DNA of 64,000 nt from Gemmatimonadales bacterium (GCA_041580775.1 JBFGDF010000001.1:22219-86218), one strand, 5' to 3'; shown: positions 39,282-57,388, numbered from the stretch's first letter. Numbers and translations: made by a program. The notes: a model not told the origin generated them from the sequence alone.

Positions 39282-39449
39282 ATGGAATTCCTCACCTTTC
39301 TTCTGATTCTCTGGGCCGGCTGGCTCGTGTGGCGGCGGCCTGAGCGCGAGCGGCTCGCGTTCGGCCTGCTCGTGGCAAGCAGCCTGCTGATGGCGCTGCT
39401 GTTCCTGATCGGCACCCACACGTCGTTCGTGCCGGGCGTGAACCTGTGA
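39282..39449 (+). CDS. Unlisted small two-TM membrane protein (55 aa)
   Basis: MEFLTFLLILWAGWLVWRRPERERLAFGLLVASSLLMALLFLIGTHTSFVPGVNL. About 89% GC3. Its stop overlaps the GTG of the next gene (GTGA at 39446-39449). Confidence 0.6.
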   Translation: MEFLTFLLILWAGWLVWRRPERERLAFGLLVASSLLMALLFLIGTHTSFVPGVNL

Positions 39450-40921
39450 CGGCTCTGGCGCCGGACCGGTTGCGCACCGTCCTCGCGTGGGTCGTGATCG
39501 CGCTGATCGCGATCCCGGTGGGTGGGGCGGTGGTGCTGTGGGTCGCGCACGGCGACACCCCCTGCATCCTCTGCTGGTCGCAGCGGACCTCGATGATCCT
39601 GATCGCGCTGGTCGGGCTCTTCGTGCTGCGCTACGGCCCGCGTCCCCGCTATCTCGGCACGGCCGTCCTGCTCGGGACCTGGGGCGTGTTCATGGCCTTG
39701 CGGCACTCAGCCCTCCACCTGGCGCGCGACGTCGGCCAGGGCTTCGCGGCCCCCATCTTCGGTGTCCACACCTATGTGTGGTCGTGGTTCATCCACTGGA
39801 TCGTCCTCGCCGTGATCGGCGTGCTGATGCTGCTCATGCGGGGAGGATTCGGGGAGTGGGGAACGAGGGACACCGGTCGCACGGGCCGGTTCGCATTTGC
39901 GCTGTTCGTGATCGTGGTCGGCGCGAACGCGCTCCAGGCGATCGTCACGACGGGACCACCTCCCTTCATCGGCCAGGCCGATCCAGTCCGGTTCACGCTC
40001 AATCCCCGCCACTGGGTGTGGATGATGGAGGAATTGGAGGGCCGCGTCTCGCTGCGCGGATCGTGGACCATCCCGCGGCCGGACCCCGAGGCCGCCGACC
40101 CCGATCCCACGCACGGGCCACTGGCGGCGCTGCCAGCGCTCCCCGTGCTGGGCTGGGAGCGGATCGGCCCGCCGCTGCACGGGCGGCTCACCGACCTGGC
40201 CCGCGACTCGGCATCGGGCCGGTTTCTCGCCGTCACGGATCGCTACGGCACGTACGTGCTGGACAGCACCTTGTCGCGGGTCGAGCACCGCGTCGTCCTC
40301 GACCCCGGATACAGCATCGATCTGTCACCGCTCGCCGGGGCCGCCTTCCTGACCGGCGACACGCTCGCCCTCCTGGCAACCAACAAGAGCTACGTGCTCC
40401 TGCGGCCCGACCCCCAGGCGGATCCCGACCGCGAGTGGCGTCACTTCCTGGAGACGGACGGCGGCATTACCGAGCTGCGTCGCTCCCGGTTTGCGACGGT
40501 GCGCGCCCGCCAGATGTACGTACTGTCCTTGGCGTTCGACCCTGACACGGACGAGCTGATCACGGTGGCGGTGCCGAGCCCTCGGCACCGACGGCTGGTG
40601 GTGTCCCGGGTTGCGCGGGGGGACTTGGTGTTGGCCTCCGAGTTCGAGCCGCGCCTCGGCGCGGGTCTCACTCCGCTCGGTCCGGAGCGGTCGGCGGCGG
40701 AGTACGTGGTGACCGGCGCCGTGGTGGCCGACGGTCTGCTCTACGCGATGAGCGCGGCCTATTCCACGCTGCTGATGATCGATCTTCAGGACAAGGTCAC
40801 GCGCGGTGCGTATACCGTGCCCGGCATTGCGGATCCGGTCGGGCTCGCGGCCCGCGGTGCCCAGCTCCTCGTGGCGCAGGCCGATGGACGGGTCGCGGTG
40901 GTGGAGCGGCCCATGCCGTAG
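39446..40921 (+). CDS. DsbB-family-like membrane domain (single CxxC) fused to a ~300-aa C-terminal, probably periplasmic, domain
   Basis: The TPCILCWSQRTSMILIAL motif matches the DsbB/BdbC PCxLCxxQR signature. Five hydrophobic segments. These are the only two Cys in 491 aa. The C-terminal region has strand-rich repeats. Confidence 0.65.
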   Translation: MTALAPDRLRTVLAWVVIALIAIPVGGAVVLWVAHGDTPCILCWSQRTSMILIALVGLFVLRYGPRPRYLGTAVLLGTWGVFMALRHSALHLARDVGQGFAAPIFGVHTYVWSWFIHWIVLAVIGVLMLLMRGGFGEWGTRDTGRTGRFAFALFVIVVGANALQAIVTTGPPPFIGQADPVRFTLNPRHWVWMMEELEGRVSLRGSWTIPRPDPEAADPDPTHGPLAALPALPVLGWERIGPPLHGRLTDLARDSASGRFLAVTDRYGTYVLDSTLSRVEHRVVLDPGYSIDLSPLAGAAFLTGDTLALLATNKSYVLLRPDPQADPDREWRHFLETDGGITELRRSRFATVRARQMYVLSLAFDPDTDELITVAVPSPRHRRLVVSRVARGDLVLASEFEPRLGAGLTPLGPERSAAEYVVTGAVVADGLLYAMSAAYSTLLMIDLQDKVTRGAYTVPGIADPVGLAARGAQLLVAQADGRVAVVERPMP

Positions 40922-46200: not shown

Positions 46201-46394
46201 CGGATCTCGCGCAGGAACCGGTCCGCCCCAAGCGCCTGGCCCAACTCGGGTTTGAGGACCTTGATCGCGACCTGGCGATCGTGTTTCAGGTCCTGTGCGA
46301 GGTAGACCGTGGCCATGCCGCCGCGGCCCAACTCGCGCCCGATCGCGTAGCGGTCAGCCAACGCCTCGGCGAGGCGATTCACCAGCGTCTCCAT
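43248..46394 (-). CDS. Hanks-type Ser/Thr protein kinase with TM segments and a long C-terminal TPR region
   Basis: GRGGMATVYLAQD, VAIKVL, HRDIKPEN, DFGIA and SPEQ. Hydrophobic segments lie around residues 300-390. The C-terminal half is TPR-like. Confidence 0.85.
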   Translation of the reverse strand: METLVNRLAEALADRYAIGRELGRGGMATVYLAQDLKHDRQVAIKVLKPELGQALGADRFLREIRLTANLQHPHIVALYDSGEADGLLYYVMPYVEGESLRARLDRDARIPVADAVRIARQVATALEFAHARDVVHRDIKPENILLAGGTALVADFGIARATQAASAGQPFTAVGLAVGTPAYMSPEQASGQSDVDGRSDLYALGCVVYEMLAGSPPFGGDTPQRTLARQVVDRAPPLATTGADVPRPLATVVERLLAKVPGDRYATASAFAQALDAAAVSGPQRTVGSGAWWSEVLSRRAVRVVAAYALLGVLALAVLKWWVTRLPLSPHLTGLVGLTLLLFLPTVTLLASRRRADGWSVIEKVGIPANALIAIAVLFLVFGGKDLGAATTAVTLRDEEGNLITRQVPKEGYRKNLAVFFFDNPTADTALTWLQYGIPWAVQHDLLQDLFFYVQDPLSFREWLQREGFPDGRNVPLALKRQIAQDAHLGWLLAGTVDRAGRELTVSTQLYETRSGQVVAKRRFAGSDVFALVDQITMALKADLEVPEAQIEGSRDLPVAETLTASLPAYRHYVDGAVRLLRLETAAAAVPFAAAVAEDSLFALAYVALWQARILSNQADVAPAALERARRLAYKLPEIYQLIIRTYHYRIAQQDPQRALAVARMHTELYPFDLQARSMLAQLWAAAGQFDSAGAEVERMYALDTTRHELLRTLGSLAMQRGDDERTLGYFRRYADRFPEDARAFTDLGQLYARIGDHARALEQYERASLLDAEDVDPILGAAWVLTDIGRFDDARARFDDALAVAETPSERTRVFDALRGFHDRRGEVSLAVRYMERGWAEGAYATVPLALLQLKLEGLAQYVRAGRVEVARDSLAALGRQVSGALDALLAIGRLGIAEELEHADSLEAALPQLDTLIARFGLGVLRGDRERAQGLVWELRGSCERAVSHYEQARALNPTLTATDIDLARCERALGQYGDAQRRLTEYLRRRPYHPRGLYELALVYSRTGKREDAVRLLRQAMEVFQHAEPACVWVRRVREALAELS

Positions 46395-46917
46395 GCTCCC
46401 TCACCCGCGCTGATCCCATTTGTACCATAGGACGCCGGGCGCATCGCGGCTAGTTCCGTGGCGGAATGGTGACGGGGACGGACAAGCATGCCGGTGGGGC
46501 GCTGGGGCGCTAGGTGGACGAGACCCCTCACCGACGGGCGTCGAGCGGCTCCAGCGCACGGGTCGGCGCGGCGTGAGCCATACTCGGCTTTGGCAGCGCC
46601 GCGTGGCACTAGCAACCCTCGCCAAGGCTTCCGCTTCGCTCATTGCCCCACCGACCGCGCCGGAGGGCGGCCCAGGCCGCGTCCTGCGGTACCCATCCCC
46701 CCCCGCGGCAGTCGTGGAGTGGTTCACGCACGTTACCCTTGCACATCGCTGCGAACCGTGCGGTGACCCCCCTCCCCCGACCTGGACACCACGCGAGTCC
46801 CCCCCGATACTTCCATCTCAGCAGTGACCGTCTAATCCCGACAACTTGCTTCGTGTTTGTCGCCCCGCGGTGGCGTAACACCGCCCACATGCTCCTCATG
46901 CTCCTTCCGGAGTGACC

Positions 46918-49014
46918 ATGACCCTGCCTCGTCGTAACGGCCCGCGCACCGAAGAGTGGCAGCACAAACTTTTCATCGCCGTCTCCGGCCTGCTGTTGTT
47001 CGAGACGCTCACGGGCCTCTCCATCTTCCTGCTCCCGTTCTCCGTGTCCAACCAGGTCATGGTGCTGCTGCACACCGCCGTGGGCATCGTGTTCCTGGGC
47101 CCGTTCGCCTGGTATCAGCTGCGCCATTGGCTGCTCTACCGCCCGCTCCGCATGTCGCACGTGAAGCTCACGGGTTACTTCGCCATGGTCGCGACGATCG
47201 TCGCCATCGTGTCCGGCGTGGTACTCACCGTGCAGGCGCTCTGGGCGACGCGGATCAGCTACGCCTGGGACCTGGTCCACATCGTGGCGACGTTCGCCCT
47301 GATCGCGTCGGTGGTGCCCCATGTGGTGGTGCTGATCGTCCGGGCGACCCGCGCGACAGATGCGGCGAACGGCGAGCCCGTCCTTGCGGCCGCCCGGCGC
47401 GGGGGCGTGGGGTCGCTCGTAGTCATGGCCGCGCTGTTCGTCGCGGTGGCGCTGGTGGCGTACTGGTACGAGCCGCCACGGCTGCAGAACGCGCTGCCGG
47501 ACGACTACAGCTACCTCTACGGCGCGGACCGGCCGTTCGCCCCGAGTCTGGCGCGCACGAACACCGGCACCGCGTTCGATGCGCGCTCGATGAGCGGCTC
47601 GGAATCATGCGGCACCTCGCGCTGCCACGAACAGATCTACGACGAGTGGCAGGTGAGCGCGCACCGCTACTCGGCCATGGACGCGGCGTTCCAGTCGGTG
47701 CAGGAGGTGATGGCCAAACAGAACGGCGCCGAGTCCACCAGGTACTGTGGCGGCTGCCACGACCCCATCTCACTGTTCTCCGGCACGAAGAACGTCTTCA
47801 CGGAAGACCTCACGAACCTGGTGGGCTACCAGGAAGGGGTGTCCTGCATCGTCTGTCACGCCATCGAGGAAACCGACGTCAAGGGGAATGCCAACTACGT
47901 CATCCGGCAGCCTGAACGCTACATGTTCGAGCTGGATGAGGGCTCCACGGCGCGGTTTTTCCGGGACTTCCTGCTTCGGGCCTACCCGCGGCATCACGTC
48001 AAGTCGCTGCAGCACAAGCTGTTCAAGAGCGCCGAGTTCTGCGCCGCATGCCACAAGCAGTTCATCGACGAGGAGATCAATCAGGTGGGCTGGGTGCAGC
48101 TCCAGAACCAGTACGACAACTGGCGCAAGAGCCGCTGGAACGAGCCGGGCGATCCCACCAAGACGATCGAGTGCCGCGAGTGCCACATGCCCCTGGATGA
48201 CTCGCACGACCCGGGCAGCGGCGACGACCTGGACTACAACCGCCGGCCGCGCGACGGCAAACACCGCAGCCATCGGTTCCTTGCGGCGAACCAGTTCATG
48301 CCGCTCGCGCTCAAGCTCGAGGGTGCCGAAGAGCACGCCAGGCTGACGGAGCAGTGGCTTCGAGGAGAGATCGAGATCCCCGAGATCGCTGACAAGTGGC
48401 GTACCGGCCCCGCCGTGCCCGTGGAGCTGGTGGTCCCGGACACCGTGTATCCGGGCCAGGACGTGAAGATCCAGGCCGTCGTGACCAACAACAAGGTCGG
48501 CCACGACTTCCCCACCGGCCCGCTCGATATCATCCAGGCCTGGGTGGAGATCGAGGTACAGGACCAAGCCGGCAACCTGGTGTACGCCTCGGGCCGCACG
48601 GACCGGAGGCACTTCATCGAGCCTGGCTCGTTCATCTTCAAGGCGGAGCCGGTGGATCAGGCCGGCAATCTGATCGACCGACACAACCTCTGGGAGATGG
48701 TCGGCGTGCGCTACCGCCGCTCCATGTTCCCCGGCGCCTCCGATCGGGCGGAGTTCGGCTTCTCGTGTCCGGCCACCTCGCTCCTGGGGCAGAGCGCGGG
48801 CGGCGAGCGCGCGCCACTCGATACCACCGTCGCGTTCCGCGTGCCCCGTGGCCAGAGTGCCACGCTCCACGTGTCGGCCAAACTGAAGTACCGCAAGGTG
48901 GACCAGTTCCTCCTGAACTTCCTGTTCGGCGAGGAATCCGGCCTGACCTCGCCGGTGACCGTGATGTCGGAGGACCAGAAGACGATCGTGGTGCGGCCGC
49001 GCCGCGCGTCCTAG
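46918..49014 (+). CDS. Membrane-anchored multiheme c-type cytochrome (five-TM His-containing N-domain plus 4 CxxCH and 1 CxxxxCH)
   Basis: Heme motifs CGTSRCH, CGGCH, CIVCH, CAACH and CRECH. N-terminal TM helices carry His residues (LLHTAVG, LVHIVATF, VPHVV). GGAG lies 5 nt upstream of ATG 46918. Confidence 0.8.
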   Translation: MTLPRRNGPRTEEWQHKLFIAVSGLLLFETLTGLSIFLLPFSVSNQVMVLLHTAVGIVFLGPFAWYQLRHWLLYRPLRMSHVKLTGYFAMVATIVAIVSGVVLTVQALWATRISYAWDLVHIVATFALIASVVPHVVVLIVRATRATDAANGEPVLAAARRGGVGSLVVMAALFVAVALVAYWYEPPRLQNALPDDYSYLYGADRPFAPSLARTNTGTAFDARSMSGSESCGTSRCHEQIYDEWQVSAHRYSAMDAAFQSVQEVMAKQNGAESTRYCGGCHDPISLFSGTKNVFTEDLTNLVGYQEGVSCIVCHAIEETDVKGNANYVIRQPERYMFELDEGSTARFFRDFLLRAYPRHHVKSLQHKLFKSAEFCAACHKQFIDEEINQVGWVQLQNQYDNWRKSRWNEPGDPTKTIECRECHMPLDDSHDPGSGDDLDYNRRPRDGKHRSHRFLAANQFMPLALKLEGAEEHARLTEQWLRGEIEIPEIADKWRTGPAVPVELVVPDTVYPGQDVKIQAVVTNNKVGHDFPTGPLDIIQAWVEIEVQDQAGNLVYASGRTDRRHFIEPGSFIFKAEPVDQAGNLIDRHNLWEMVGVRYRRSMFPGASDRAEFGFSCPATSLLGQSAGGERAPLDTTVAFRVPRGQSATLHVSAKLKYRKVDQFLLNFLFGEESGLTSPVTVMSEDQKTIVVRPRRAS

Positions 49015-49015
49015 C

Positions 49016-50824
49016 GTGGCCGGCCTCCCCCGGCGCCGTCGCCTGCTCTTCCGGACCGCGGGCTTCGGCGCGCTGTTCGTGGTCGCTGCCGGTGTGGCCG
49101 TGTGGCTCGCCACGCGGCCCAAACCCACCTACCGGCCGGGCGAAGCGGTTCAGGGGCTGACGGCCGACCTCGCCCGCGACCTCCCGCCGGACTACCCGCG
49201 CGTCACGTTCAGCGACGTCACGGCGCAGGCGGGCATCACGTTCCGGCACTTCACCGGCCACCGCTCGTCGCAGCTCCCGGAAGACATGGGCTCCGGCGCC
49301 GCCTGGGGCGATTACGACGGCGACGGCTGGTTGGACCTGTACGTGGTGAACGCGGTGGGCCCGCTCACGGCCGCGACGCCGGACGAGGTGGCGCGGTCGC
49401 CGGCCCACGCGGCGCTGTACCGCAACCTGGGCGACGGCACGTTCCGCGACGTGAGCGCCGAGGCCGGCGTCCAGTTCCGCGGCTGGGGCATGGGTGCCAC
49501 CTGGGCCGACGTCGACAACGACGGCCGGCTCGACCTGTTCGTCACGGCCTACGGCGATAACGTGCTGTACCGTAACAACGGGGACGGCACGTTTACCGAC
49601 CGCACCCGGGCGGCAGGCCTCGGCGGCCGGCCCGGGTTCTGGGCGGGCGCCGCCTGGGGCGACTATGACCGGGACGGCTTCCTGGACCTCTACGTCACGG
49701 GCTACGTGCAGTACCGCCAGCTCGCCGACCAGGGAGCCACGCGGCAGTACGACGTCGAGCAGCCCGCCGGCATCAACCCGTCGTCGTTCGAGCCGGAGTC
49801 CAATCTCCTGTTCCGCAACCAGGGGAACGGCACGTTCACCGAGGTGGCCGTCCGCGCGGGGGTCGCGAACCCCACCGGACGGAGCCTCGGCGCCGTGTGG
49901 GCGGACTTCGACGACGACGGCTGGCCCGATCTCTACGTCGCCAACGACGTGTCCGACAATGTGATGTTCCGCAACCTGGGCGACGGGACCTTCGCGGACG
50001 TGAGCCACGCCGCACGCGTCGCCGACTACCGGGGCGCCATGGGCCTCGCCGTGGGCGACTGGGACGGGGATCAGGATCTGGATCTCTTCGTCACGCACTG
50101 GATCGCCCAGGAGAACGCGTTGTACAGCAACCTCCGCGCGGAGCTCGAGGCCCGCGGCGCGTACTTGCGTCAGCCGATCCAGTTCACCGACGAGGCCGAC
50201 CGCTACGGGCTGGGACAGATCGCGCTCGATTTCGTGGGCTGGGGCACGTCGTTTGTCGACTACGACAACGACGGCCGGCCGGACCTGTTCGTCGTGAACG
50301 GCAGCACCCTGGAAGAGAAACGGGATCGGCGACTCCTCGTTCCGATGCGCAGCCTGCTGTTCTGGAATCGCGGCGCGGGGGACGGGTTCTACGACGTGTC
50401 GCCCGTGAGTGGAGCGTACTTCAAGGAAACGCACGTCGGCCGCGGGGCGGCCTTCGGGGACTACGACAACGACGGCGACGTGGACGTTTTCATCGTGAAC
50501 AACGGCGGGCCGGGCCTCCTGCTCAGGAACGACGGCGGCAACCGCCAGCGCTGGCTCGGGGTCGCGCTCGAGGGCACGAAGAGCAACCGGTTTGGCGTGG
50601 GCGCGCGGGTGCGGCTCGTAGCGGGCGGCACCGTACAGGTCCGCGAGGTCGGCGCACAGACGTCCTACTTGTCGCAAAACAGCCTGATCGAACATTTCGG
50701 ACTTGGCGCTGCCAACGGCGTGGATACGCTGGAGATCCGCTGGCCCAGCGGCACTCGGCAGATTGTGTCGGCGCCCGCGCCAAGTCGGGTGCTGCACGTC
50801 GTGGAGCAGGCGGCCCGGCGATGA
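49016..50824 (+). CDS. CRTAC1-family protein (FG-GAP/VCBS repeats plus C-terminal ASPIC/UnbV domain)
   Basis: Repeated GDYDGDGWLDLYV / DVDNDGRLDLFV / GDYDRDGFLDLYV units. C-terminal NRFGVGARVRL...QTSYLSQNSLIEHFGLG...IRWPSG. Confidence 0.8.
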   Translation: MAGLPRRRRLLFRTAGFGALFVVAAGVAVWLATRPKPTYRPGEAVQGLTADLARDLPPDYPRVTFSDVTAQAGITFRHFTGHRSSQLPEDMGSGAAWGDYDGDGWLDLYVVNAVGPLTAATPDEVARSPAHAALYRNLGDGTFRDVSAEAGVQFRGWGMGATWADVDNDGRLDLFVTAYGDNVLYRNNGDGTFTDRTRAAGLGGRPGFWAGAAWGDYDRDGFLDLYVTGYVQYRQLADQGATRQYDVEQPAGINPSSFEPESNLLFRNQGNGTFTEVAVRAGVANPTGRSLGAVWADFDDDGWPDLYVANDVSDNVMFRNLGDGTFADVSHAARVADYRGAMGLAVGDWDGDQDLDLFVTHWIAQENALYSNLRAELEARGAYLRQPIQFTDEADRYGLGQIALDFVGWGTSFVDYDNDGRPDLFVVNGSTLEEKRDRRLLVPMRSLLFWNRGAGDGFYDVSPVSGAYFKETHVGRGAAFGDYDNDGDVDVFIVNNGGPGLLLRNDGGNRQRWLGVALEGTKSNRFGVGARVRLVAGGTVQVREVGAQTSYLSQNSLIEHFGLGAANGVDTLEIRWPSGTRQIVSAPAPSRVLHVVEQAARR

Positions 50825-51678
50825 GGTGGATCGCGGGGTGCCTGGTCGTCGTGGTCCTGCTGTTCGCCGTGGTCACCCTGCTGAAGCGAGGGCCCAGGGG
50901 CGCCCTCGATGACACGGAAACGTCGCGGATCTCGACCGAGGATCGTGAACGGGTACAGCAGTTCTGGGAGACGTACCGCCAGGCCACCGACCATCGCATC
51001 GCCGGGCGCTTGGCCGACGCCCGGGAAGCGTACACCCGGGCCCTGGCACTCAATCCGGGACACCAGGATGCGCTCTATTACCTCGGCAACATGGCGTTCG
51101 AGCTAGGGGATCTGCCTGGTGCCGAGCGCGCGTGGCGGCGGTTGGTGGAGGTGGACCCCAGCAACGCCCGCGGGCACTCGCAGCTGGGCGTGCTGTACTC
51201 GTGCGTGGGCGCGCCGGCGTTGCTGGACCTGGCGAGCGCCGACGCGGAGTTTCGACGCGCCCTGGAGATCAACCGCGAGGAGACGGGCCCGTTGCTGCAT
51301 CTGGGCGAAGTGGCATTGCTGCGCGGCGATCTGGAGGAAGCACGCACGTGGTTCGAAAAGGTCACCGGGTCAAACTACACCAGCGTCGAGGCACACTTCT
51401 ACCGGGGCTACGTGGCCTGGAAGGCCGGGGCGTCGCGCCGGGCCACGGAGCTCCTGGCGGCCGCGGTGGGGTTTGCGCGCCCCGCGGCACCCGCCGAAGG
51501 GGTGGCGGGGGAAGGCGATACCCGAGCCGGTAGGCGCCCGATGGTGGCCGAACCGGCGGCGGGCTGCCGGCCTATGCGCGTGCGCGTCGAGGATCTGCGC
51601 GCGCTGGACGACACGGACCTGTCCCGAGGGATGGACTCGGTTTATCGAGCGCTGGACGGGCTGCTCGCCGGACGGTAA
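50821..51678 (+). CDS. Membrane-anchored TPR protein
   Basis: ATG 50821 overlaps the upstream stop (ATGA). N-terminal TM segment IAGCLVVVVLLFAVVTLL. TPR-like AREAYTRALALNPGHQDALYYLGNMAFELGD. Confidence 0.7.
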   Translation: MRWIAGCLVVVVLLFAVVTLLKRGPRGALDDTETSRISTEDRERVQQFWETYRQATDHRIAGRLADAREAYTRALALNPGHQDALYYLGNMAFELGDLPGAERAWRRLVEVDPSNARGHSQLGVLYSCVGAPALLDLASADAEFRRALEINREETGPLLHLGEVALLRGDLEEARTWFEKVTGSNYTSVEAHFYRGYVAWKAGASRRATELLAAAVGFARPAAPAEGVAGEGDTRAGRRPMVAEPAAGCRPMRVRVEDLRALDDTDLSRGMDSVYRALDGLLAGR

Positions 51679-51705: not shown

Positions 51706-52386
51706 TCAGTCGTCGAGCAGCTCCAACGACGCCTGGATGTTGCCCTCGATGACGGACCGGTTGGCCTCGTCTCGCGGGTCGAGCGTGGCAGTCGGGCCGA
51801 CGAACCAGCCGGTCGGGTCGATCACCAGCTCCACCAGCAGCGGCCGTGGCTCACCATCCACGAACGTCCGGGGTGAGGCAAACGGCAGCTCGAGATCGAC
51901 ATCCAGGGGCGCGGTGAAGGTGAACGGGGCGCCGTCCACGGTGCCCTGGATCAGCACACTGGCGTCGGCGAGGGCCGGATACGCCACGATCAGCGGCTCT
52001 TCGGCCGGATTGCCGACTTCGAGCTTGTCGATCGACACTTCCAGCTCTTTATACGTCCCCGCTGGCACGTCCGTGTCGAACACGAGGATCGGGTCGCCCG
52101 TCAGATCGAGCGGGACCACCTCCGATTGCTCGTGGATCCAGTCCACGGTCTCGTCGAGCCCGGCAGTCTCCAGCTTGAGGCCGCCGAGCACGAACGACAC
52201 GCTCTGGATCTCGACCGTCGCGGCGCTTCCCTGCACCGGGGCCAGGGTCCCGGCGGGCGCCGCGCCCGTCGGAATCACCCGGACGGTGACCTGGACCTGA
52301 CGGTCCCCGAGCGGGGCGAGTGAATCGGAGCAGGCGGCCAGCACGCCGGCCGCGGCGAGTAGCGGTGTGAGTCTCAACAACGTCAT
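51706..52386 (-). CDS. Lipoprotein, DUF4382-like
   Basis: MTLLRLTPLLAAAGVLAAC lipobox. The VEIQSVSFVLGGLKLE...DVPAGTYKELEVSIDKLEV pattern resembles DUF4382 from memory. GGAAGG lies 8 nt upstream of ATG 52386. Confidence 0.6.
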   Translation of the reverse strand: MTLLRLTPLLAAAGVLAACSDSLAPLGDRQVQVTVRVIPTGAAPAGTLAPVQGSAATVEIQSVSFVLGGLKLETAGLDETVDWIHEQSEVVPLDLTGDPILVFDTDVPAGTYKELEVSIDKLEVGNPAEEPLIVAYPALADASVLIQGTVDGAPFTFTAPLDVDLELPFASPRTFVDGEPRPLLVELVIDPTGWFVGPTATLDPRDEANRSVIEGNIQASLELLDD

Positions 52387-53098: not shown

Positions 53099-55582
53099 TC
53101 AGGGCGCCGCCAAACGGTCGAGCAGAAACCGGACGGCCAGGTCCGTCACGTTCCACAGCTGAATGTCGGAACTCGTCCCGTAGCGCACGGGGCGCAGCGT
53201 GTCGCCTTCGATCCGGTAGCTCCACAGCTCGTTGTGCTTGAGGCCCGAGGCCTCGACGGCCGCGCGCGCGCCATCGAGGGAGCGGCGCAAGCCGTTCACG
53301 TACGCGCGCATCGCGTCACCGTCAGACCGCAGTCTGCCGAACGCGTCGTACGCGGCGTGGATCTGTCTGGCGAGCCCCAGGAACAGCAGGTTCACTTCGC
53401 GACCCCAGACTACGCGCGGCGAGTGGTACAGATCGTCCCGGAAGGCCTGCTGGACCTCGGGGCTCGCATAGACGTCGTTGGCGACCAGGGGCCCCAGGCC
53501 GTCCACGAAGAGGCCCACCGGATAGGGTCGGGCCACCACGTCGAGCAGCGACCCAACGGCACCCGGAGTGGCGGCGCCGCGCAGGATCTGCTCCGTGTAG
53601 TCCCCCAGGAACAGGTCCGTCGCGGGGTCGGTGTTGGCGACCGCGATCGGCCGGCCCACGCTGTCGAGCGCCACCGCAAGGAAGCGCAGGGCCCGCGCAG
53701 CACTGGGGTGATGCAGGTACTGCCGCCAGTAGGATCGTTCCGGCTCGCTCATCGCCTCAAGCGCTGCGGTCACCTGCGCGCGGATCTCGTCCGGCGTGCG
53801 CTCGACCTCGAAGTGCCGCCGCGCCGCGTGCCACGTGGCAAGCGTCGACTGCCACCGGGCGGCGTCGTGCAGCAGCGCCGTGAGCGCCACCGCATCGCCG
53901 GGCACGCGGGACACGGCGGCTTCCGCGGAGAACCCGAGGGCGTCTATCGCCCAGAGAATGGTCTCCGCCGCCTCCAGCGCCTTGGGCACCCACACGACGT
54001 TCACATCCATCGCGAACCTGCCGCCGCCGTACCCCACGCGGCTGTCCCGCCAGCTGCCCGGCAGCCAGCCGCGGTCATCCCGGTACTGAAAGCCCACCAG
54101 ATTCGTGGCCACCGGCTCCTGGGCATACGGCCATGCGAGCCGCGCCACGAACGCGAGGTTCCGGACCAGCGCGTCCAGCCGCGTGACGCCGCTCCCGGCG
54201 GCGGCGGTCAGGAAGCGTCGCTTTCGCTCGGCCGGCACGTCGGTCCGCGCCAGATAGCGGCCGGCGAGCACCGGCAGCTGGAAGTCGTCGTCGATCATGC
54301 GGTAGTTCTCGCGCACCCGCGACAGCGTCCCGAGCAGCGCACGGGCGTCAGCCAGGTGCTGGGCGGCAGCCGCCGGGTCCGTCCGGGTCGCGTCCGCCCA
54401 CTCCCGGATCAGGGCGCTGTATTCCGCGGCGTTCTCGCGGATCGCCTGCCCGCCGAGTGCTTCCTCGTGACTCGCTTCGCCGGCCGGTGAGAGCTTGCGC
54501 AGCACGCTCGCGATCACGTGCTCCTGGAGCTCCACCGACGAGATGGGCTCCAGCATGAGCGCCGTCATCATCATGTCGCGACCGAAGTACGTCGCGTAGT
54601 TGGGCAGGGCGGCCATGAGCTTCTCTTGGTAGCTCAACAGCTCGAGCCCACGGATCTCCCGCTCGAACCGGCGGAAGGACAGGACACGCGCGTCCCGTGC
54701 CAGCCCCTCGGGCGTCAGCGCCCGCCGCAAGCTGTCGGCCAGGCGGCGCTGGCGCTGGTAGAACGCCTCGAATGCGTCGTTGAAGATCTGGCTCCGTTCG
54801 AGCGGCGTGAGCGCCGGGGCGTCGGTGGTGCCAGTCACCTCGAACCGGGTGCCGCCGGCGCCGCGCGCCCGAATCCGGATCACGTCGCCCGCCACATCGG
54901 CCATGCTGGTCCTGGCGTCGCCGGACAGCACGAAGGTCATGCGGTTCCGGCCGTCCAGGCTGATGTGCTCCACGACGACGGTCCACAGCGTGTCGCCCTG
55001 TGTGAGGGTGAGCCGCGGGTAGAGCCGTCCCCGCAGATCGGTCACGCTGCGGGCACCGAGCAGTGACAGATGGCGCCGCCGCTCCGCGGTGGGCAGCCGC
55101 TCCACACTGGCGATCAAGTCCGTCAGCTCCTCCAGCGCAAAGCGGCCGTCGCCATAGGGTTTCCGGTGCCAGCCCCAGTGCTGGACATCACGCTCCTGCC
55201 GCATCGTGCCGAGCACGAACCAGCCGATCTCGAGAGCCCCCGCCGCCGACGCGAGCCGATGCCGCACCGCCCGGCGTGGTCCGTCGTCAAACACCTCGAC
55301 ACCCGACCCACCCCACGTGAGCGGCGCCGGCCGGCCCAGCGTATCGCGCACCGTGAAGGCCGCGCTGACATTGGACGCGTCGGCCCACACGTGGACCACC
55401 CGTCCGCTCCGGGTATCGAGGTAGATCTGGAAGGCGTTGCGCCGCGAGTCACGGAAGAAGCGGGTCGCATAGCCTTCGTAGGCCACCGAATCGTCCAGAC
55501 CCGCTTCCGGGAATTCGAGCACCGGCGCTTGCACCCCCTGCGCGAGCGCCTGGACCACGAAGAGCGATGCGAGCACGTGCAT
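53099..55582 (-). CDS. Secreted (alpha/alpha)6-barrel glycoside-hydrolase-like protein (GDE_C / amylo-alpha-1,6-glucosidase-like), function uncertain
   Basis: 827 aa from ATG 55582 with signal peptide MHVLASLFVVQALAQG. NYATYFGRDMMMTALML and GYGGGRFAMDVNVVWVP blocks are reminiscent of the GDE_C family. Confidence 0.5.
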   Translation of the reverse strand: MHVLASLFVVQALAQGVQAPVLEFPEAGLDDSVAYEGYATRFFRDSRRNAFQIYLDTRSGRVVHVWADASNVSAAFTVRDTLGRPAPLTWGGSGVEVFDDGPRRAVRHRLASAAGALEIGWFVLGTMRQERDVQHWGWHRKPYGDGRFALEELTDLIASVERLPTAERRRHLSLLGARSVTDLRGRLYPRLTLTQGDTLWTVVVEHISLDGRNRMTFVLSGDARTSMADVAGDVIRIRARGAGGTRFEVTGTTDAPALTPLERSQIFNDAFEAFYQRQRRLADSLRRALTPEGLARDARVLSFRRFEREIRGLELLSYQEKLMAALPNYATYFGRDMMMTALMLEPISSVELQEHVIASVLRKLSPAGEASHEEALGGQAIRENAAEYSALIREWADATRTDPAAAAQHLADARALLGTLSRVRENYRMIDDDFQLPVLAGRYLARTDVPAERKRRFLTAAAGSGVTRLDALVRNLAFVARLAWPYAQEPVATNLVGFQYRDDRGWLPGSWRDSRVGYGGGRFAMDVNVVWVPKALEAAETILWAIDALGFSAEAAVSRVPGDAVALTALLHDAARWQSTLATWHAARRHFEVERTPDEIRAQVTAALEAMSEPERSYWRQYLHHPSAARALRFLAVALDSVGRPIAVANTDPATDLFLGDYTEQILRGAATPGAVGSLLDVVARPYPVGLFVDGLGPLVANDVYASPEVQQAFRDDLYHSPRVVWGREVNLLFLGLARQIHAAYDAFGRLRSDGDAMRAYVNGLRRSLDGARAAVEASGLKHNELWSYRIEGDTLRPVRYGTSSDIQLWNVTDLAVRFLLDRLAAP

Positions 55583-55744
55583 GGGAAGAACCGCCGTGAT
55601 GCTGGTGAGGGTCGACCGGTCGAGATCCCAAATGTATCCGGCATGAGCCGTGCCCGCGACACACTCGGCCGTGTCACCGCGTGTTGTCCGCGGGCGGCCA
55701 CGCGGGTACGTTTTCCGCGTATCCCGCTTCGAGGTCATGGCCGC

Positions 55745-57388
55745 ATGTCGCCCCACCGCTCGTGGATCCTTCCGTTCACCGTCGCCCTCCTCGTCCTTCC
55801 CGCGCCGGTTGGTGCGCAGGACTCGGCTCACGCCGCGGTGGACAGCTGGAAGCGCGGTGCGGTGTGTTACGAGGTCTTCGTCCGCTCGTTCTTCGACAGC
55901 GACGGAGACGGGATCGGCGACCTGAACGGGCTCACGGCCAAGCTCGACTACATCAACGACGGCGATCCTGGCACGGCCAGCGACCTAGGGGCCCGGTGCG
56001 TCTGGCTCATGCCGGTGGCGGAGTCGCCGAGCTATCACGGTTACGACGTAACGGACTACTACCGCATCGAGCGCGACTACGGCACCAACGACGACTTCAA
56101 GCGCTTCGTGGCCGAGGCGCACCGGCGCGGCATCCGGGTGCTGGTGGACCTCGTGCTGAACCATGCGTCGAGCGAACACCCGTACTTCCAGGAGGCGCTG
56201 CGGGATTCCGCCTCGCCATATCGGAGCTGGTTCCTCTGGTCGCCGACGCACCCGGGGGTCAAGAACCCCTGGGGCGGCGACAACTGGCACCGCTCCCCCG
56301 TGCGGGACGAGTACTACTACGGGTTCTTCTGGGGCGGCATGCCGGACCTGAATTACGAGACCCCCGCGGTCCTGGAGGAGGCGAAGAAGGTCGCCACCTT
56401 CTGGCTGACCGAGCTGGGCGTGGACGGATTCCGGCTCGATGCTGTGAAGCACCTGGTGGAGCTGGAGCAGGGCCGGATCGTCGAGCACGTCCCGGCGACC
56501 CACGCCGCCCTGCGAGCGTTCGCCGCGCACGTCCGGCGCGTGGCCCCCGCGGCATTCACCATCGGCGAGGTGTGGGACAGCATCGGCGCGATGCTGCGGT
56601 ACTATCCGGATCAGCTGGACGCCTATTTTGCCTTCGAGGCGTCGGACGCGATCGTGGAGTCCGTCCGCTTGGGGTCGGCGCAGTCCCTGCTGGGTCCGTT
56701 TCTGCGGCTCCAACGCGAGCTGCCCGCCGAGCGCTGGGCACCGTTCCTCAAGAACCACGACCAGACCAGAACGCTCACCGCGCTCGGCGGCGATGTCGGG
56801 AAGGCCAGGGTGGCGGCCACATTGCTGCTCACGCTGCCCGGGCTGCCGTTCGTCTACTACGGCGAGGAGATCGGCATGACCGGCGACAAGCCCGACCCCC
56901 GGCTGCGGACGCCGATGCAGTGGGCCCCCGAGCGGGGCGCCGGCTTTACCGAAGGCCAGGCGTGGGAGCCGCTCCAGCCGGACTCGCTCACCACGAACGT
57001 CGCGCTGCAACACGCCGACCCGGCCTCGTTGCTCAACCGGTATCGCCGACTCATCCACCTGCGGGGCACCAACGCGGCCCTGGCCGGCGGCGAGCTGATC
57101 CCGCTCCGCGCGAGCAACGATGCCGTCGCCGCCTACCTGCGGCGCGACGGCGAGGGCGCGGTGCTGGTGGTCGCCAACCTCGGGACCGCCCCCATCGTGA
57201 ACGCGCACCTCACGTCATCGGACGGCGTCCTGCCGGCGGGACGGTACCGGGCGACCAGCCTGCTTGACGGGCCGGCCGGGACACCGCTCCAGGTCGGACG
57301 GGGCGGCCGGATTCACGCCTACGTGCCGGTCGTGTCCCTGCGCCCACTCGAGAGTCAGGTGTTCGAATTGACCGTGGAGGGACGGTGA
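55745..57388 (+). CDS. Secreted GH13 alpha-amylase-family enzyme
   Basis: Signal peptide MSPHRSWILPFTVALLVLPAPVGAQ. YEVFVRSFFDSDGDGIGDL, HGYDVTDY, VLVDLVLNHAS, GFRLDAVKH and FLKNHD blocks. Confidence 0.85.
   Translation: MSPHRSWILPFTVALLVLPAPVGAQDSAHAAVDSWKRGAVCYEVFVRSFFDSDGDGIGDLNGLTAKLDYINDGDPGTASDLGARCVWLMPVAESPSYHGYDVTDYYRIERDYGTNDDFKRFVAEAHRRGIRVLVDLVLNHASSEHPYFQEALRDSASPYRSWFLWSPTHPGVKNPWGGDNWHRSPVRDEYYYGFFWGGMPDLNYETPAVLEEAKKVATFWLTELGVDGFRLDAVKHLVELEQGRIVEHVPATHAALRAFAAHVRRVAPAAFTIGEVWDSIGAMLRYYPDQLDAYFAFEASDAIVESVRLGSAQSLLGPFLRLQRELPAERWAPFLKNHDQTRTLTALGGDVGKARVAATLLLTLPGLPFVYYGEEIGMTGDKPDPRLRTPMQWAPERGAGFTEGQAWEPLQPDSLTTNVALQHADPASLLNRYRRLIHLRGTNAALAGGELIPLRASNDAVAAYLRRDGEGAVLVVANLGTAPIVNAHLTSSDGVLPAGRYRATSLLDGPAGTPLQVGRGGRIHAYVPVVSLRPLESQVFELTVEGR

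Follow-up and report, generated by a model that had tools for sequence, protein, structure and literature searches.

A conserved gene trio of several FCB-group phyla encodes a predicted membrane b-type/pentaheme c-type cytochrome with CRTAC1-type propeller and TPR partners

Introduction

The window analyzed here, a 64,000-nt stretch of DNA from a Gemmatimonadales bacterium (GCA_041580775.1 JBFGDF010000001.1:22219-86218), contains three adjacent genes, termed g1, g2, and g3, for a putative membrane cytochrome, a CRTAC1/ASPIC-type protein, and a TPR protein. A first-pass annotation had described g1 as a self-contained transmembrane electron conduit and had seen no recognizable reductase or oxidase catalytic subunit beside it, which raises the question of what such a conduit would serve and what the two partner proteins contribute. 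We propose, with a probability of roughly 60%, that the operon codes for a periplasm-facing, three-subunit complex of the inner membrane that joins the (mena)quinone pool to a periplasmic site.

Results

Gene arrangement and upstream region

ORF calls placed g1, g2, and g3 in tight packing on the same (+) strand at 46918-51678 (Table 1). The TAG stop codon of g1 (49012-49014) is followed after a 1-nt gap by the GTG start codon of g2 (49016), the ATG of g3 (50821-50823) overlaps the TGA of g2 (50822-50824) in an ATGA sequence, and g3 ends with TAA (51676-51678); the close spacing reported before was confirmed at the nucleotide level. A GGAG sequence is located 5 nt 5' of the g1 ATG (46918). The promoter-like site further upstream is weak (one site found in the consensus scan versus 0.3 expected), and no Rfam elements were found in 46300-47000. 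Downstream of g3, a convergent ORF ends at 51706.

Table 1. Features of the g1-g2-g3 locus in window coordinates. A1, alignment of 55 close homologs of g1; A2, alignment of 56 superfamily members (down to 25% identity); A3, TM-domain alignment of 26 divergent sequences (16-60% identity).
Feature	Position	Strand	Description	Basis
Promoter-like site TGGACA-17-GATACT	46783..46811	+	approximately 107 nt upstream of g1	consensus scan
g1	46918..49014	+	698 aa, fused membrane b-type (predicted)/pentaheme c-type cytochrome; alternative ORF start 46912	ORF
g1 TM domain, residues 1-185	46918..47472	+	five TM helices	AlphaFold model
His52	47071..47073	+	TM2, periplasmic side; candidate b-heme ligand, pairs with His121	invariant in A1, A2, A3
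His70	47125..47127	+	TM2, cytoplasmic end; candidate b-heme ligand, pairs with His135	invariant in A1 and A3, at least 90% in A2
His121	47278..47280	+	TM4, periplasmic side	invariant in A1, A2, A3
His135	47320..47322	+	TM4, cytoplasmic side; H-x13-H with His121	invariant in A1 and A3, at least 90% in A2
c-heme cap, g1 residues 222-495	47581..48402	+	alpha-helical, five c hemes	profile and Foldseek matches
Heme c site 1, CGTSRCH (CX4CH), residues 231-237	47608..47628	+
Heme c site 2, CGGCH, residues 277-281	47746..47760	+
Heme c site 3, CIVCH, residues 310-314	47845..47859	+
Heme c site 4, CAACH, residues 375-379	48040..48054	+
Heme c site 5, CRECH, residues 419-423	48172..48186	+
Ig-like beta-sandwich stem, g1 residues 500-692	48415..48993	+	invariant G528-H529-D-F-P-T-G	beta strands in model
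g2	49016..50824	+	602 aa, CRTAC1/ASPIC-type protein	ORF and Pfam
g3	50821..51678	+	285 aa, TPR protein with N-terminal signal anchor	ORF and Pfam TPR families

Conservation, linkage, and fusions of the three genes

More than 3,400 homologs of g1 were found at 64-88% identity, and an intact trio occurs in hundreds of species of uncultured bacteria. The earlier pairing of the cytochrome with a CRTAC1-like gene was borne out by co-occurrence, as g2 followed g1 in 62 of 62 informative loci; g3 came after g2 in 56 of 57. This linkage was seen in Gemmatimonadota, Rhodothermales, Cytophagia, Saprospiraceae, KSB1, Calditrichaceae, Marinimicrobia, Fidelibacterota, and Krumholzibacteriia; the trio is distributed over several phyla of the FCB group. 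It matched no characterized respiratory complex in Pfam, NCBIfam, PDB, or the literature; no paper on the g1-g2-g3 trio was found, and neither apbE nor a flavin partner was seen in the loci.

Fusions between the components are frequent. A g2-g3 fusion was present in about 25 of 65 loci, and at one locus (L009) a paralog in which cytochrome and TPR are fused is followed by ASPIC paralogs. Among the superfamily members (n = 56), TPR fusions occurred in about 14 and fusions to an FGE-like domain in four; in paralogs, TPR is attached to the C terminus of the cytochrome. Distant members adjoin genes for FG-GAP, LVIVD, or PD40 propellers in four of five sampled contexts. Synteny and fusions, the two lines of evidence here, suggest that the products of g1, g2, and g3 physically associate.

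The membrane domain of g1 and its candidate b-heme ligands

The AlphaFold model of the whole g1 product (pLDDT 89.6, pTM 0.86) contains five long helices (residues 11-38, 43-74, 81-109, 115-147, and 153-183), in agreement with the five-TM N-terminal domain assigned previously. Lys and Arg residues cluster at the N terminus and in loops 2-3 and 4-5, a distribution that places the N terminus inside and the heme c domain outside; according to the model, TM5 would lead the chain into the periplasm.

The only invariant TM-domain columns among the 26 divergent sequences are H52, H70, H121, H135, and Gly100. TM2 and TM4 carry two conserved His residues each at matching depths, giving one pair per membrane face. 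Conservation of such pairs in homologs of the N-terminal domain had been set beforehand as a test of the assignment, and the pairs were present in all three alignments. The possible b-heme ligands named earlier could be narrowed down to these four residues, whereas the His with which TM1 begins, His16, varies (H/R/Q/S among the 55 close homologs). Judged from this pattern, the TM domain is a probable di-heme-b bundle on TM2 and TM4.

Family searches gave the following picture. The H-x13-H helix (TM4) yielded weak matches to QcrB (helix B of cytochrome b), to subunit C of succinate dehydrogenase, and, in photosystem II, to the His-rich helices of CP47; the TM-only profile had no significant match to solved b cytochromes. 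The spacing between His52 and His70 is 18 residues versus 13-14 in classical cytochrome b. The FdnI/HydC-type membrane domain (PF01292) has His residues in TM1, TM2, and two in TM4; membership of g1 in this type was not supported, as there was no match up to E 10, 1KQF_C gave E 1.1, and the TM1 His is variable. DUF4405 (PF14358), which binds heme b via four central His residues (PMC11334425), was matched weakly over residues 88-137 (E 0.033, 15.2 bits, cutoff 26.7). A DUF4405 match (E ≤0.01) was obtained for 6 of the 56 superfamily members (best E 1.6e-5), and PF14358 annotation is precomputed for several g1 orthologs. This weak match is the only link at the sequence level between g1 itself and a proven heme-b family, and b-heme binding is treated here as predicted.

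The N-terminal domain might instead be a heme-free five-helix anchor, with another quinol dehydrogenase feeding the tethered c cytochrome, and it fits such a role that no b-cytochrome family, solved or curated, was matched significantly by g1 itself. A plain anchor, however, hardly explains why the sole invariant TM columns at 16-60% identity are four His and one Gly, a single helix would be enough for anchoring, and some orthologs and paralogs do reach DUF4405 significance; we consider a heme-free anchor extremely improbable.

The periplasmic pentaheme domain of g1

The five c-heme sites counted in the first-pass annotation were found invariant in the 55 close homologs and the 56 superfamily members, down to 25% identity, a degree of sequence conservation that is not due to chance. 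The longer CX4CH form at site 1 is confined to part of the superfamily: it represents a 2-residue indel variant, and other members have CXXCH there. The only invariant non-motif His residues of the c-heme domain in the 56 superfamily members are H249, H360, H452, and H529, and with four invariant distal His residues for five hemes, one of the hemes may be a special one. H449, H589, M265, M424, and M594 are invariant too in the subfamily to which g1 belongs (the 55 close homologs); any of these could complete the six-coordination of the fifth heme, and then no open site would exist. The segment between heme sites 4 and 5, GWVQLQNQYDNW, is invariant, and the only conserved Cys outside the heme motifs is the subfamily-specific C617 in the stem.

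The cap profile matched 5ZE8, the low-potential pentaheme cytochrome c552 of Thermochromatium tepidum, with E 3e-15, MccSep (9WT8/9WT9) with about 1e-4, and c554 (1BVB) with 1.4e-4; Foldseek comparison of the g1 model with 5ZE8 gave E 1.5e-11 and a TM score of 0.67 over 511 columns. MccSep/ExtKL, a multiheme selenoprotein of Geobacter sulfurreducens, is a soluble, tetrameric polysulfide reductase in which hemes 1, 3, 4, and 5 are bis-His coordinated and heme 2 is catalytic, with Cys239 as heme-2 ligand and Sec325 coming from the stem (bioRxiv 10.1101/2025.11.18.688581). The stem motif of g1 aligns with 'PHAMPTG' of 5ZE8, giving the common form (G/P)H-x-x-P-T-G, and with 'GHSIPDG-U325' of MccSep (GH-x-x-P-x-G); the first-heme regions of MccSep and g1 align as well, and NCBIfam NF040886 was matched weakly. 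The modeled structure puts the periplasmic part of g1 in the fold class of 5ZE8 and MccSep ('pentaheme cap plus Ig-like stem') and makes it more than a wire. The conduit described earlier stands insofar as a His-bearing TM domain is fused to a periplasmic pentaheme domain, but it is not an anonymous wire. The statement that no recognizable reductase or oxidase catalytic subunit is present was too strong, because the fold class includes a catalytic polysulfide reductase and g1 itself may carry an active-site heme. Motif order suggests that heme c site 2 of g1 corresponds to the catalytic heme 2 of MccSep, and the 4+1 heme pattern (four bis-His plus one special) of MccSep recurs in the invariant His residues of g1.

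It is conceivable that g1 alone is a membrane-tethered multiheme enzyme, a reductase or oxidase akin to MccSep/NrfA, whose heme 2 would convert a small inorganic compound of sulfur, nitrogen, or a metal, with the propeller and TPR proteins as non-redox scaffold or assembly partners. Such an enzyme would agree with the fold class common to catalytic MccSep (bioRxiv 10.1101/2025.11.18.688581), with five hemes facing only four invariant distal His residues, with the invariant GWVQLQNQYDNW lying in the region that corresponds to that of MccSep Cys239, and with a propeller without cofactor-type residues. The catalytic residues of MccSep are nevertheless absent from g1: the Sec325 position is taken by Pro535 (Thr in most of the superfamily), and no conserved Cys occurs near the Cys239 position, to which GWVQLQNQYDNW aligns with low confidence. 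These differences, together with the signal peptide of soluble MccSep versus the five TM helices with which g1 begins, led us to reject g1 as a member of the MccSep family proper. For 5ZE8, the closest structure, we know of no function or catalytic role, and the variation of partner domains across the superfamily suggests that the partner defines the chemistry. Catalysis by g1 alone is, in our view, unlikely.

An NrfA/HAO-type catalytic multiheme enzyme was rejected for g1 as well: no CXXCK motif is present in g1, and NrfA chains gave E 0.17-0.22. NrfB (TIGR03146) scored 19.4 bits (cutoff 166.6).

The propeller protein g2 and the TPR protein g3

The g2 product has an FG-GAP beta-propeller and a UnbV_ASPIC domain and is anchored at its N terminus by an Arg-rich TM segment. 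Its previous identification as an FG-GAP/ASPIC-UnbV protein was substantiated by Pfam (FG-GAP_3 in eight stretches, E 1.7e-53; UnbV_ASPIC, 2.7e-19) and by a match to human CRTAC1 (9ETN, E 1.3e-20). Across phyla, g2 shows 54-79% identity, and 128 of its 602 positions are at least 97% conserved in 65 orthologs, which is more than a passive scaffold needs and speaks against g1 acting on its own. The 65 orthologs contain no conserved Cys, and no redox-cofactor signature was found in g2; H361 is its only invariant His and Met342 its only invariant Met.

For g3, Pfam identified TPR repeats in a domain located in the periplasm. The TPR repeats and the signal anchor agree with the membrane-anchored TPR protein described earlier, but g3, a periplasmic protein often fused to the propeller or the cytochrome, is better seen as part of the complex. 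These fusions also bear on whether g3 could be an NrfG/CcmI-like apocytochrome chaperone for heme attachment at the CX4CH site, so that the linkage would reflect assembly and not a working complex. A non-standard CX4CH site does exist in g1, and g3 and related TPR regions weakly match PF23914 (TPR_CcmH_CycH; 27.4 bits for g3, cutoff 42). TPR association is, however, independent of the form of the site: TPR-fused cytochromes have CXXCH in P0200, P0220, P0224, P0261, P0262, and the L009 paralog (CIRCH), and CX4CH in P0154, P0178, and P0181. Covalent fusion of TPR to a mature cytochrome or propeller in many genomes fits a permanent subunit rather than a transient chaperone, and we regard the chaperone role as very improbable.

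Discussion

Proposed working of the three-subunit complex

As g1 has no cytoplasmic domain, quinol/quinone is the sole plausible partner from which it could take, or to which it could pass, electrons on the membrane side. In the proposed inner-membrane complex, one b heme near the periplasmic face would be held by His52/His121 (TM2/TM4) and a second near the cytoplasmic face by His70/His135. Electrons would cross the membrane via the two b hemes, pass four bis-His c hemes, and arrive at the fifth heme, probably heme 2, which is without an invariant distal His; the reaction could take place there, or electrons could leave there. Binding or presenting a periplasmic substrate would fall to the propeller and TPR proteins, unless they accept the electrons themselves, and they may thereby confer specificity on the module. 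The balance tips somewhat towards electron flow from quinol to the periplasm, with the module acting as a reductase or supplying electrons in the manner of MsrQ, DUF4405 proteins, CbcL, and systems of the CymA type.

Electrons might also flow inward: the propeller and TPR proteins would bind or oxidize a periplasmic donor, and the c hemes, followed by the two b hemes, would carry its electrons to menaquinone on the cytoplasmic side of the membrane, in a proton-motive redox loop like that of formate dehydrogenase-N. A redox loop with an N-side quinone site requires two membrane-spanning b hemes, and the His pairs at both faces would supply these. Propellers are common in periplasmic dehydrogenases feeding c cytochromes; beta-propeller scaffolds that donate to c cytochromes are found, e.g., in PQQ enzymes and cd1 nitrite reductase. 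Against inward flow stand the missing cofactor signature in g2, the unsupported FdnI-type membership, the usually low potential of bis-His c hemes, and the outward action of the proven DUF4405-/MsrQ-like relatives of this type of TM domain (PMC11334425), and we judge it distinctly unlikely.

Within the quinone-linked complex, bacterial CRTAC1-type propellers could be working partners of the membrane b/c cytochrome, either as substrate-binding or as previously unrecognized catalytic subunits, a tentative idea that we hold to be possible but doubtful. His361/Met342 of g2 would then possibly supply the sixth ligand of heme 2 or an active-site wall. If this partnership holds, the trio would represent a periplasmic oxidoreductase linked to quinone that is new and is widespread in the FCB group, and it would provide the first biochemical context for the CRTAC1/ASPIC family. 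FG-GAP, LVIVD, and PD40 propellers and FGE-like enzymes would then have a general 'electron socket' in the cytochrome superfamily.

Comparison with known systems

With 5ZE8, its best structural and best sequence-profile match (identity about 16%), g1 shares five collinear c-heme sites, the helical cap, and the Ig-like beta-sandwich. 5ZE8 itself is soluble and periplasmic, whereas g1 begins with a His-bearing membrane domain of 185 residues and five helices; the inserts that separate heme sites 3-4 and 4-5 are larger in g1, and its site 1 is CX4CH. MccSep and g1 are alike in the 'mushroom' of pentaheme cap and Ig-like stem; unlike MccSep, g1 is membrane-fused through five TM helices and has propeller and TPR partners.

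Vertebrate CRTAC1 is a secreted matrix glycoprotein, and we know of no redox partner for it. CRTAC1 (9ETN) and g2 have the FG-GAP propeller and UnbV_ASPIC in common, whereas g2 is membrane-anchored and operonic with a cytochrome; its strongly conserved region of about residues 300-470 does not align to 9ETN.

DUF4405/MsrQ-like cytochromes resemble g1 in four conserved His residues in the membrane core, with weak to moderate similarity over TM3-TM4. Together with PepSY-like cytochromes, they have been proposed to transfer electrons from the membrane to extracytosolic partners, and those DUF4405 proteins that have been described contain six TM helices and work with flavinylated proteins and ApbE (PMC11334425). 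In contrast, g1 has five helices and a fused c-type multiheme domain. PtdA (ptdABCDEFG) is encoded with a porin and tetra- and deca-heme proteins as a putative outer-membrane conduit (bioRxiv 10.1101/2023.11.21.568154), whereas no porin or further cytochromes lie beside the g1-g2-g3 trio.

The idea of a b/c fusion in the inner membrane has a precedent. In Geobacter sulfurreducens, the inner-membrane b/c cytochrome CbcL is a quinone-pool oxidoreductase with six TM helices whose nine c hemes are all bis-His; it passes electrons to soluble PpcA (PMC9129911). No sequence relationship between CbcL and g1 was detected; the two follow the same concept, in which one polypeptide combines a membrane domain for two b hemes (predicted in g1) with a multiheme-c domain in the periplasm. 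In CbcL, the nine hemes are held in a largely unstructured periplasmic domain, whereas g1, with its five helices, carries five hemes in a structured cap with a stem and has dedicated propeller and TPR partners.

Organization of the operon

The window has a G+C content of approximately 70%, and its nearest relatives are metagenome-assembled genomes (MAGs) of Gemmatimonadota. The genes for a membrane cytochrome (g1), a CRTAC1/ASPIC-type FG-GAP propeller (g2), and a TPR protein (g3) are compiled below with further features of the window and of homologous loci (L-handles). The tight packing of the three genes noted in the first-pass annotation was borne out by the ORF coordinates and codon positions: a single base separates the TAG stop of g1 (49012-49014) from the GTG start of g2, and the TGA of g2 is overlapped by the ATG of g3 (50821) in an ATGA. 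A convergent ORF ends 28 nt past the end of g3 (51678). Since the ATG at 46918 is preceded at 5 nt by GGAG and homologs start at the equivalent Met, g1 was numbered from this codon (698 amino acids). All five c-heme motifs, CGTSRCH, CGGCH, CIVCH, CAACH, and CRECH, were found where they had first been placed. Nothing credible was obtained when the region 5' of g1 was searched for a riboswitch or other RNA.

Coordinates of the operon genes and of additional features in the window and in homologous loci
Feature	Sequence	Positions	Strand	Basis	Content
g1	window	46912/46918-49014	+	ORF scan	Pfam Cytochrome_C554
g2	window	49016-50824	+	ORF scan	Pfam FG-GAP_3 (8 stretches) and UnbV_ASPIC
g3	window	50821-51678	+	ORF scan	Pfam TPR families
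491-aa ORF	window	39446-40921	+		N-terminal DsbB domain (PF02600, residues 13-92)
910-aa ORF	window	53099-55831	-		no Pfam match
449-aa ORF	L027	12122-13471			between g1 and g2; lipobox-like 'LGCSG' near N-terminus
Paralogous module	L009	1541-9814			directly upstream of the orthologous trio
FGE-fused cytochrome gene	L084	8001-10601			between OMP beta-barrel and PD40/Tricorn-type propeller genes

Distribution and linkage of the three genes

More than 3,400 g1 homologs with 64-88% identity were retrieved, all from metagenomes or MAGs; the close homologs listed all derive from uncultured organisms, with no named isolate among them. The gene is present in at least 583 GTDB species-level genomes from Gemmatimonadota, Rhodothermales, Cytophagia, Saprospiraceae, KSB1, Calditrichaceae, Marinimicrobia, Fidelibacterota, and Krumholzibacteriia. 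Identities across phyla amount to 64-85%, and to 64-70% between different FCB-group phyla (loci L001-L080, superfamily proteins P0001-P0329); judged from these sequences, such values point to very strong constraint or lateral spread.

Linkage was counted in 80 fetched loci, using only those with enough sequence. The co-occurrence of g1 with a CRTAC1-like gene was confirmed across genomes: 62 of 62 loci carry a g2 ortholog (54-79% identity) downstream of g1 in the same orientation, at a median distance of approximately 26 nt. In 56 of 57 loci g2 is followed by g3 (40-67% identity), the exception being L010 with g3 just upstream. The genes flanking the trio are not conserved between the loci examined, and the trio is thus an autonomous module. 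No conserved respiratory or porin neighbors were found among these loci, which leaves a reading as an outer-membrane electron conduit unsupported. A role in iron uptake or ferric reduction was also considered and rejected, as TonB receptor, FecR, and ECF sigma genes near the trio (L081) are only sporadic. Neither these genes nor the Rrf2 regulators found near the trio in about 10 loci were given weight, because their occurrence is patchy and both are commonplace in FCB genomes; the Rrf2 neighbors are likewise too weak a hint to point to a substrate.

In L041, L055, L067, L068, and L077, an Rrf2-family regulator gene lies divergently on the opposite strand, 87-305 nt upstream of g1. The Rrf2 neighbors are generic and do not reach the equivalog level of IscR, NsrR, or RirA; trios adjoining them occur in Bacteroidota, Gemmatimonadota, and Rhodothermales MAGs, and Fe-S, redox state, or NO may be the signal sensed. 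Other upstream neighbors of g1 are lineage-specific: a gene of radical-SAM-like type (weak RaSEA-type match) is located 149-434 nt upstream on the same strand in the Saprospiraceae/Bacteroidota loci L059, L060, L062, L066, and L069, and a Zn-dependent alcohol dehydrogenase gene 58-163 nt upstream in L015, L018, L023, L027, L029, and L035 of a Gemmatimonadota lineage. The 449-aa ORF of L027 belongs to one Gemmatimonadota lineage, and the same g1-g2 gap of approximately 1.4 kb is found in L023 and L035. Within the window, the 910-aa ORF has a 63%-identical homolog adjoining the trio in L004; the 491-aa ORF is an unusual DsbB fusion, of which the approximately 390 residues following the DsbB domain have no Pfam match.

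The membrane domain of g1

A first structure prediction, based only on an alignment of 55 close homologs (67-88% identity), was poor in the heme part (pLDDT 55) and was superseded by an AlphaFold model built on a divergent alignment of 56 superfamily members with identities as low as 25% (mean pLDDT 89.6, pTM 0.86). This model contains five long helices (residues 11-38, 43-74, 81-109, 115-147, and 153-183). The N-terminus, loop 2-3, and loop 4-5 are enriched in Lys and Arg, which places the N-terminus inside and the heme-c domain outside. Of the intrahelical His residues initially regarded as possible b-heme ligands, H52, H70, H121, and H135 are invariant in the 55 close homologs; H16, which might be proposed from sequence inspection, varies (H/R/Q/S). 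In 26 divergent membrane domains (16-60% identity) the only invariant columns were these four His and Gly100. On the periplasmic side, H52 is located close to the end of TM2 and H121 close to that of TM4; H70 and H135 occupy the corresponding places on the cytoplasmic side. Such an arrangement is compatible with a membrane-spanning stack of two b hemes, each with bis-His ligation. The invariant His argue against a membrane domain that serves as a plain anchor, a reading that is very unlikely.

DUF4405, which binds heme b via four central His as determined experimentally and is kin to MsrQ-like and PepSY-like cytochromes (PMC11334425), matched g1 weakly (E 0.033). It reached E values of at most 0.01 in six of the 56 superfamily members (best, 1.6e-5), and is a precomputed annotation for several g1 orthologs. 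Searching the PDB with a profile of the membrane domain alone yielded no significant solved b cytochrome; only weak H-x13-H helix resemblances to CP47, QcrB helix B, and SdhC were obtained, which do not suffice to assign g1 to any b-cytochrome family of known structure. Matches to cytochrome b561 (4O6Y, E 0.0076), Dcytb (5ZLE, 0.22), and FdnI (1.1) were too weak for use, and g1 gave no FdnI/HydC (PF01292) signal. Given the conserved four-His pattern, yet weak direct family evidence, we infer from the sequences, with good support, that g1 binds b heme.

The periplasmic pentaheme domain

By far the best PDB match of the g1 model was 5ZE8, the low-potential pentaheme cytochrome c552 of Thermochromatium tepidum (E 1.5e-11, target-normalized TM 0.67, 511 columns). 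In agreement, the profile of the divergent alignment matched 5ZE8 (E 3e-15), the Geobacter sulfurreducens polysulfide reductase MccSep (ExtKL; 9WT8/9WT9, E about 1e-4), and cytochrome c554 (1BVB, E 1.4e-4). MccSep is a periplasmic pentaheme 'mushroom' whose heme-bearing cap is alpha-helical and whose stem is Ig-like; polysulfide is reduced at heme 2, which has Cys239 as a ligand and to which the stem contributes Sec325, and hemes 1, 3, 4, and 5 are bis-His ligated (bioRxiv 10.1101/2025.11.18.688581). The g1 stem sequence G528-H529-D-F-P-T-G aligns with 'GHSIPDG-U325' of MccSep, but the position of Sec325 is occupied by Pro535, and there is no conserved Cys near the position of Cys239. Thus, g1 has the MccSep fold and is not an MccSep-type enzyme.

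The only non-motif His residues invariant across the superfamily are H249, H360, H452, and H529, i.e., four for five hemes, which corresponds to the 4+1 pattern of MccSep. Based on this likeness, the ligation of one c heme of g1 may be unusual; the order of the motifs suggests that this would be heme 2. H449, H589, M265, M424, and M594, also invariant in the subfamily of the window's own g1, could occupy the vacant position. That the cytochrome by itself is the enzyme appears unlikely, if worth bearing in mind. The CX4CH at heme site 1 is a two-residue indel variant occurring in part of the superfamily.

The wider cytochrome superfamily

In an exhaustive search, the g1 superfamily numbered 3,323 representative clusters at a cutoff of E ≤1e-3; a cutoff of E ≤1e-30 left 488. 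The membrane His and the five heme sites are kept in the sampled members with rare exceptions such as P0269, in which Arg replaces the two cytoplasmic-side His. Three architectures were distinguished: the core alone (approximately 650-700 aa), the core with a C-terminal TPR domain (about 14 of 56), and the core with a C-terminal FGE-sulfatase-like domain (4 of 56; P0215, P0238, P0258, and P0269, domain E values down to 1.8e-49).

In L009 the paralogous module encodes a fusion of TM, pentaheme, Ig, and TPR parts (971 aa; CIRCH at the first site), then an ASPIC paralog and a TPR-FG-GAP-ASPIC protein of 1,205 aa. The latter ends in a C-terminal region of approximately 430 aa with no assigned type. 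Paralog sets of this sort are also present in L010, L032, and L064. Among distant members, P0157 and P0166 neighbor FG-GAP proteins of 840-1,100 aa, P0186 a 2,493-aa LVIVD/Big/TSP3 protein, and the FGE-fused P0215 genes for a PD40-type propeller and an OMP beta-barrel. The gene arrangement of L084 recurs in L085; the context of P0200 was uninformative on propeller neighbors. These propeller-type neighbors indicate that partnership between the cytochrome core and a beta-propeller runs through the superfamily as a whole.

Properties of g2 and g3

To our knowledge, no biochemical role has been established for the CRTAC1/ASPIC family, from bacteria to humans. Human CRTAC1 (9ETN, E 1.3e-20) is a homolog of g2, whose orthologs start with an Arg-rich stretch followed by a TM anchor. 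Of 602 positions, 128 are ≥97% conserved in the orthologs; none of the conserved residues is a Cys, and H361 is the sole invariant His. A CRTAC1-family gene located between genes for hydrazine-synthase-like heme proteins has been described in non-anammox bacteria (PMC12758564).

In about 25 of 65 loci g2 and g3 form a single ORF, as in L009 (12120-14705), and unfused g3 proteins have a basic n-region at their start, followed by a hydrophobic stretch; both features place the TPR domain in the periplasm. A function of g3 as a maturation factor specific for CX4CH is highly improbable, since the TPR association is independent of whether the motif is CX4CH or CXXCH.

Proposed mechanism

The proposal starts from what was observed for the trio: its domains and their topology, the invariant residues, the fold class, and the synteny and fusions of the genes. 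The three proteins would form a physical complex, in which the membrane domain of g1 would carry two b hemes and be coupled to quinone, as g1 has no cytoplasmic domain and no other feed would be possible. The fifth c heme would be special, and the propeller/TPR pair may confer specificity, present the substrate, or accept electrons.

FGE-type oxidases depend on a reductant. Outward electron flow from quinol to the periplasm is slightly favored, because the FGE-like fused partners are enzymes of a kind that would need reductant, the hemes are mostly bis-His, and functional relatives of the membrane-domain type act outward (PMC11334425; for the Geobacter b/c cytochrome CbcL, PMC9129911). Inward flow, with the module acting as a redox loop, appears less likely.

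Significance and comparison with known systems

The trio is widespread, highly conserved, represented by thousands of metagenomic proteins, and intact in the loci examined; a full-text literature search found no publication on it. It ties an electron-transfer engine to a CRTAC1-type propeller. If its parts work together, it would offer a testable route to CRTAC1/ASPIC function, and thereby a handle on that family, and would mean that bacteria abundant in sediment, soil, and marine settings possess a further, new type of quinone-linked enzyme in the periplasm for respiration or redox metabolism.

When the trio was compared with characterized respiratory systems, the defining catalytic features of MccSep, NrfA, and CbcL were all absent. 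By fold, g1 is closest to 5ZE8, which itself has no assigned function. MccSep belongs to the same fold class, but its catalytic residues are missing in g1. We know of exactly one function assigned to the pentaheme 'mushroom' fold so far. CbcL is similar to g1 in concept, but its domains are unrelated; the DUF4405/MsrQ-like cytochromes are closest to the membrane part, with weak homology, and CRTAC1 is the closest known relative of g2. New in the trio is the joining of a putative membrane di-heme-b module to the recently recognized pentaheme fold. As far as its sequences tell, it may be classified as a membrane-anchored multiheme quinone-linked oxidoreductase type with an unprecedented, strictly conserved CRTAC1-type partner.
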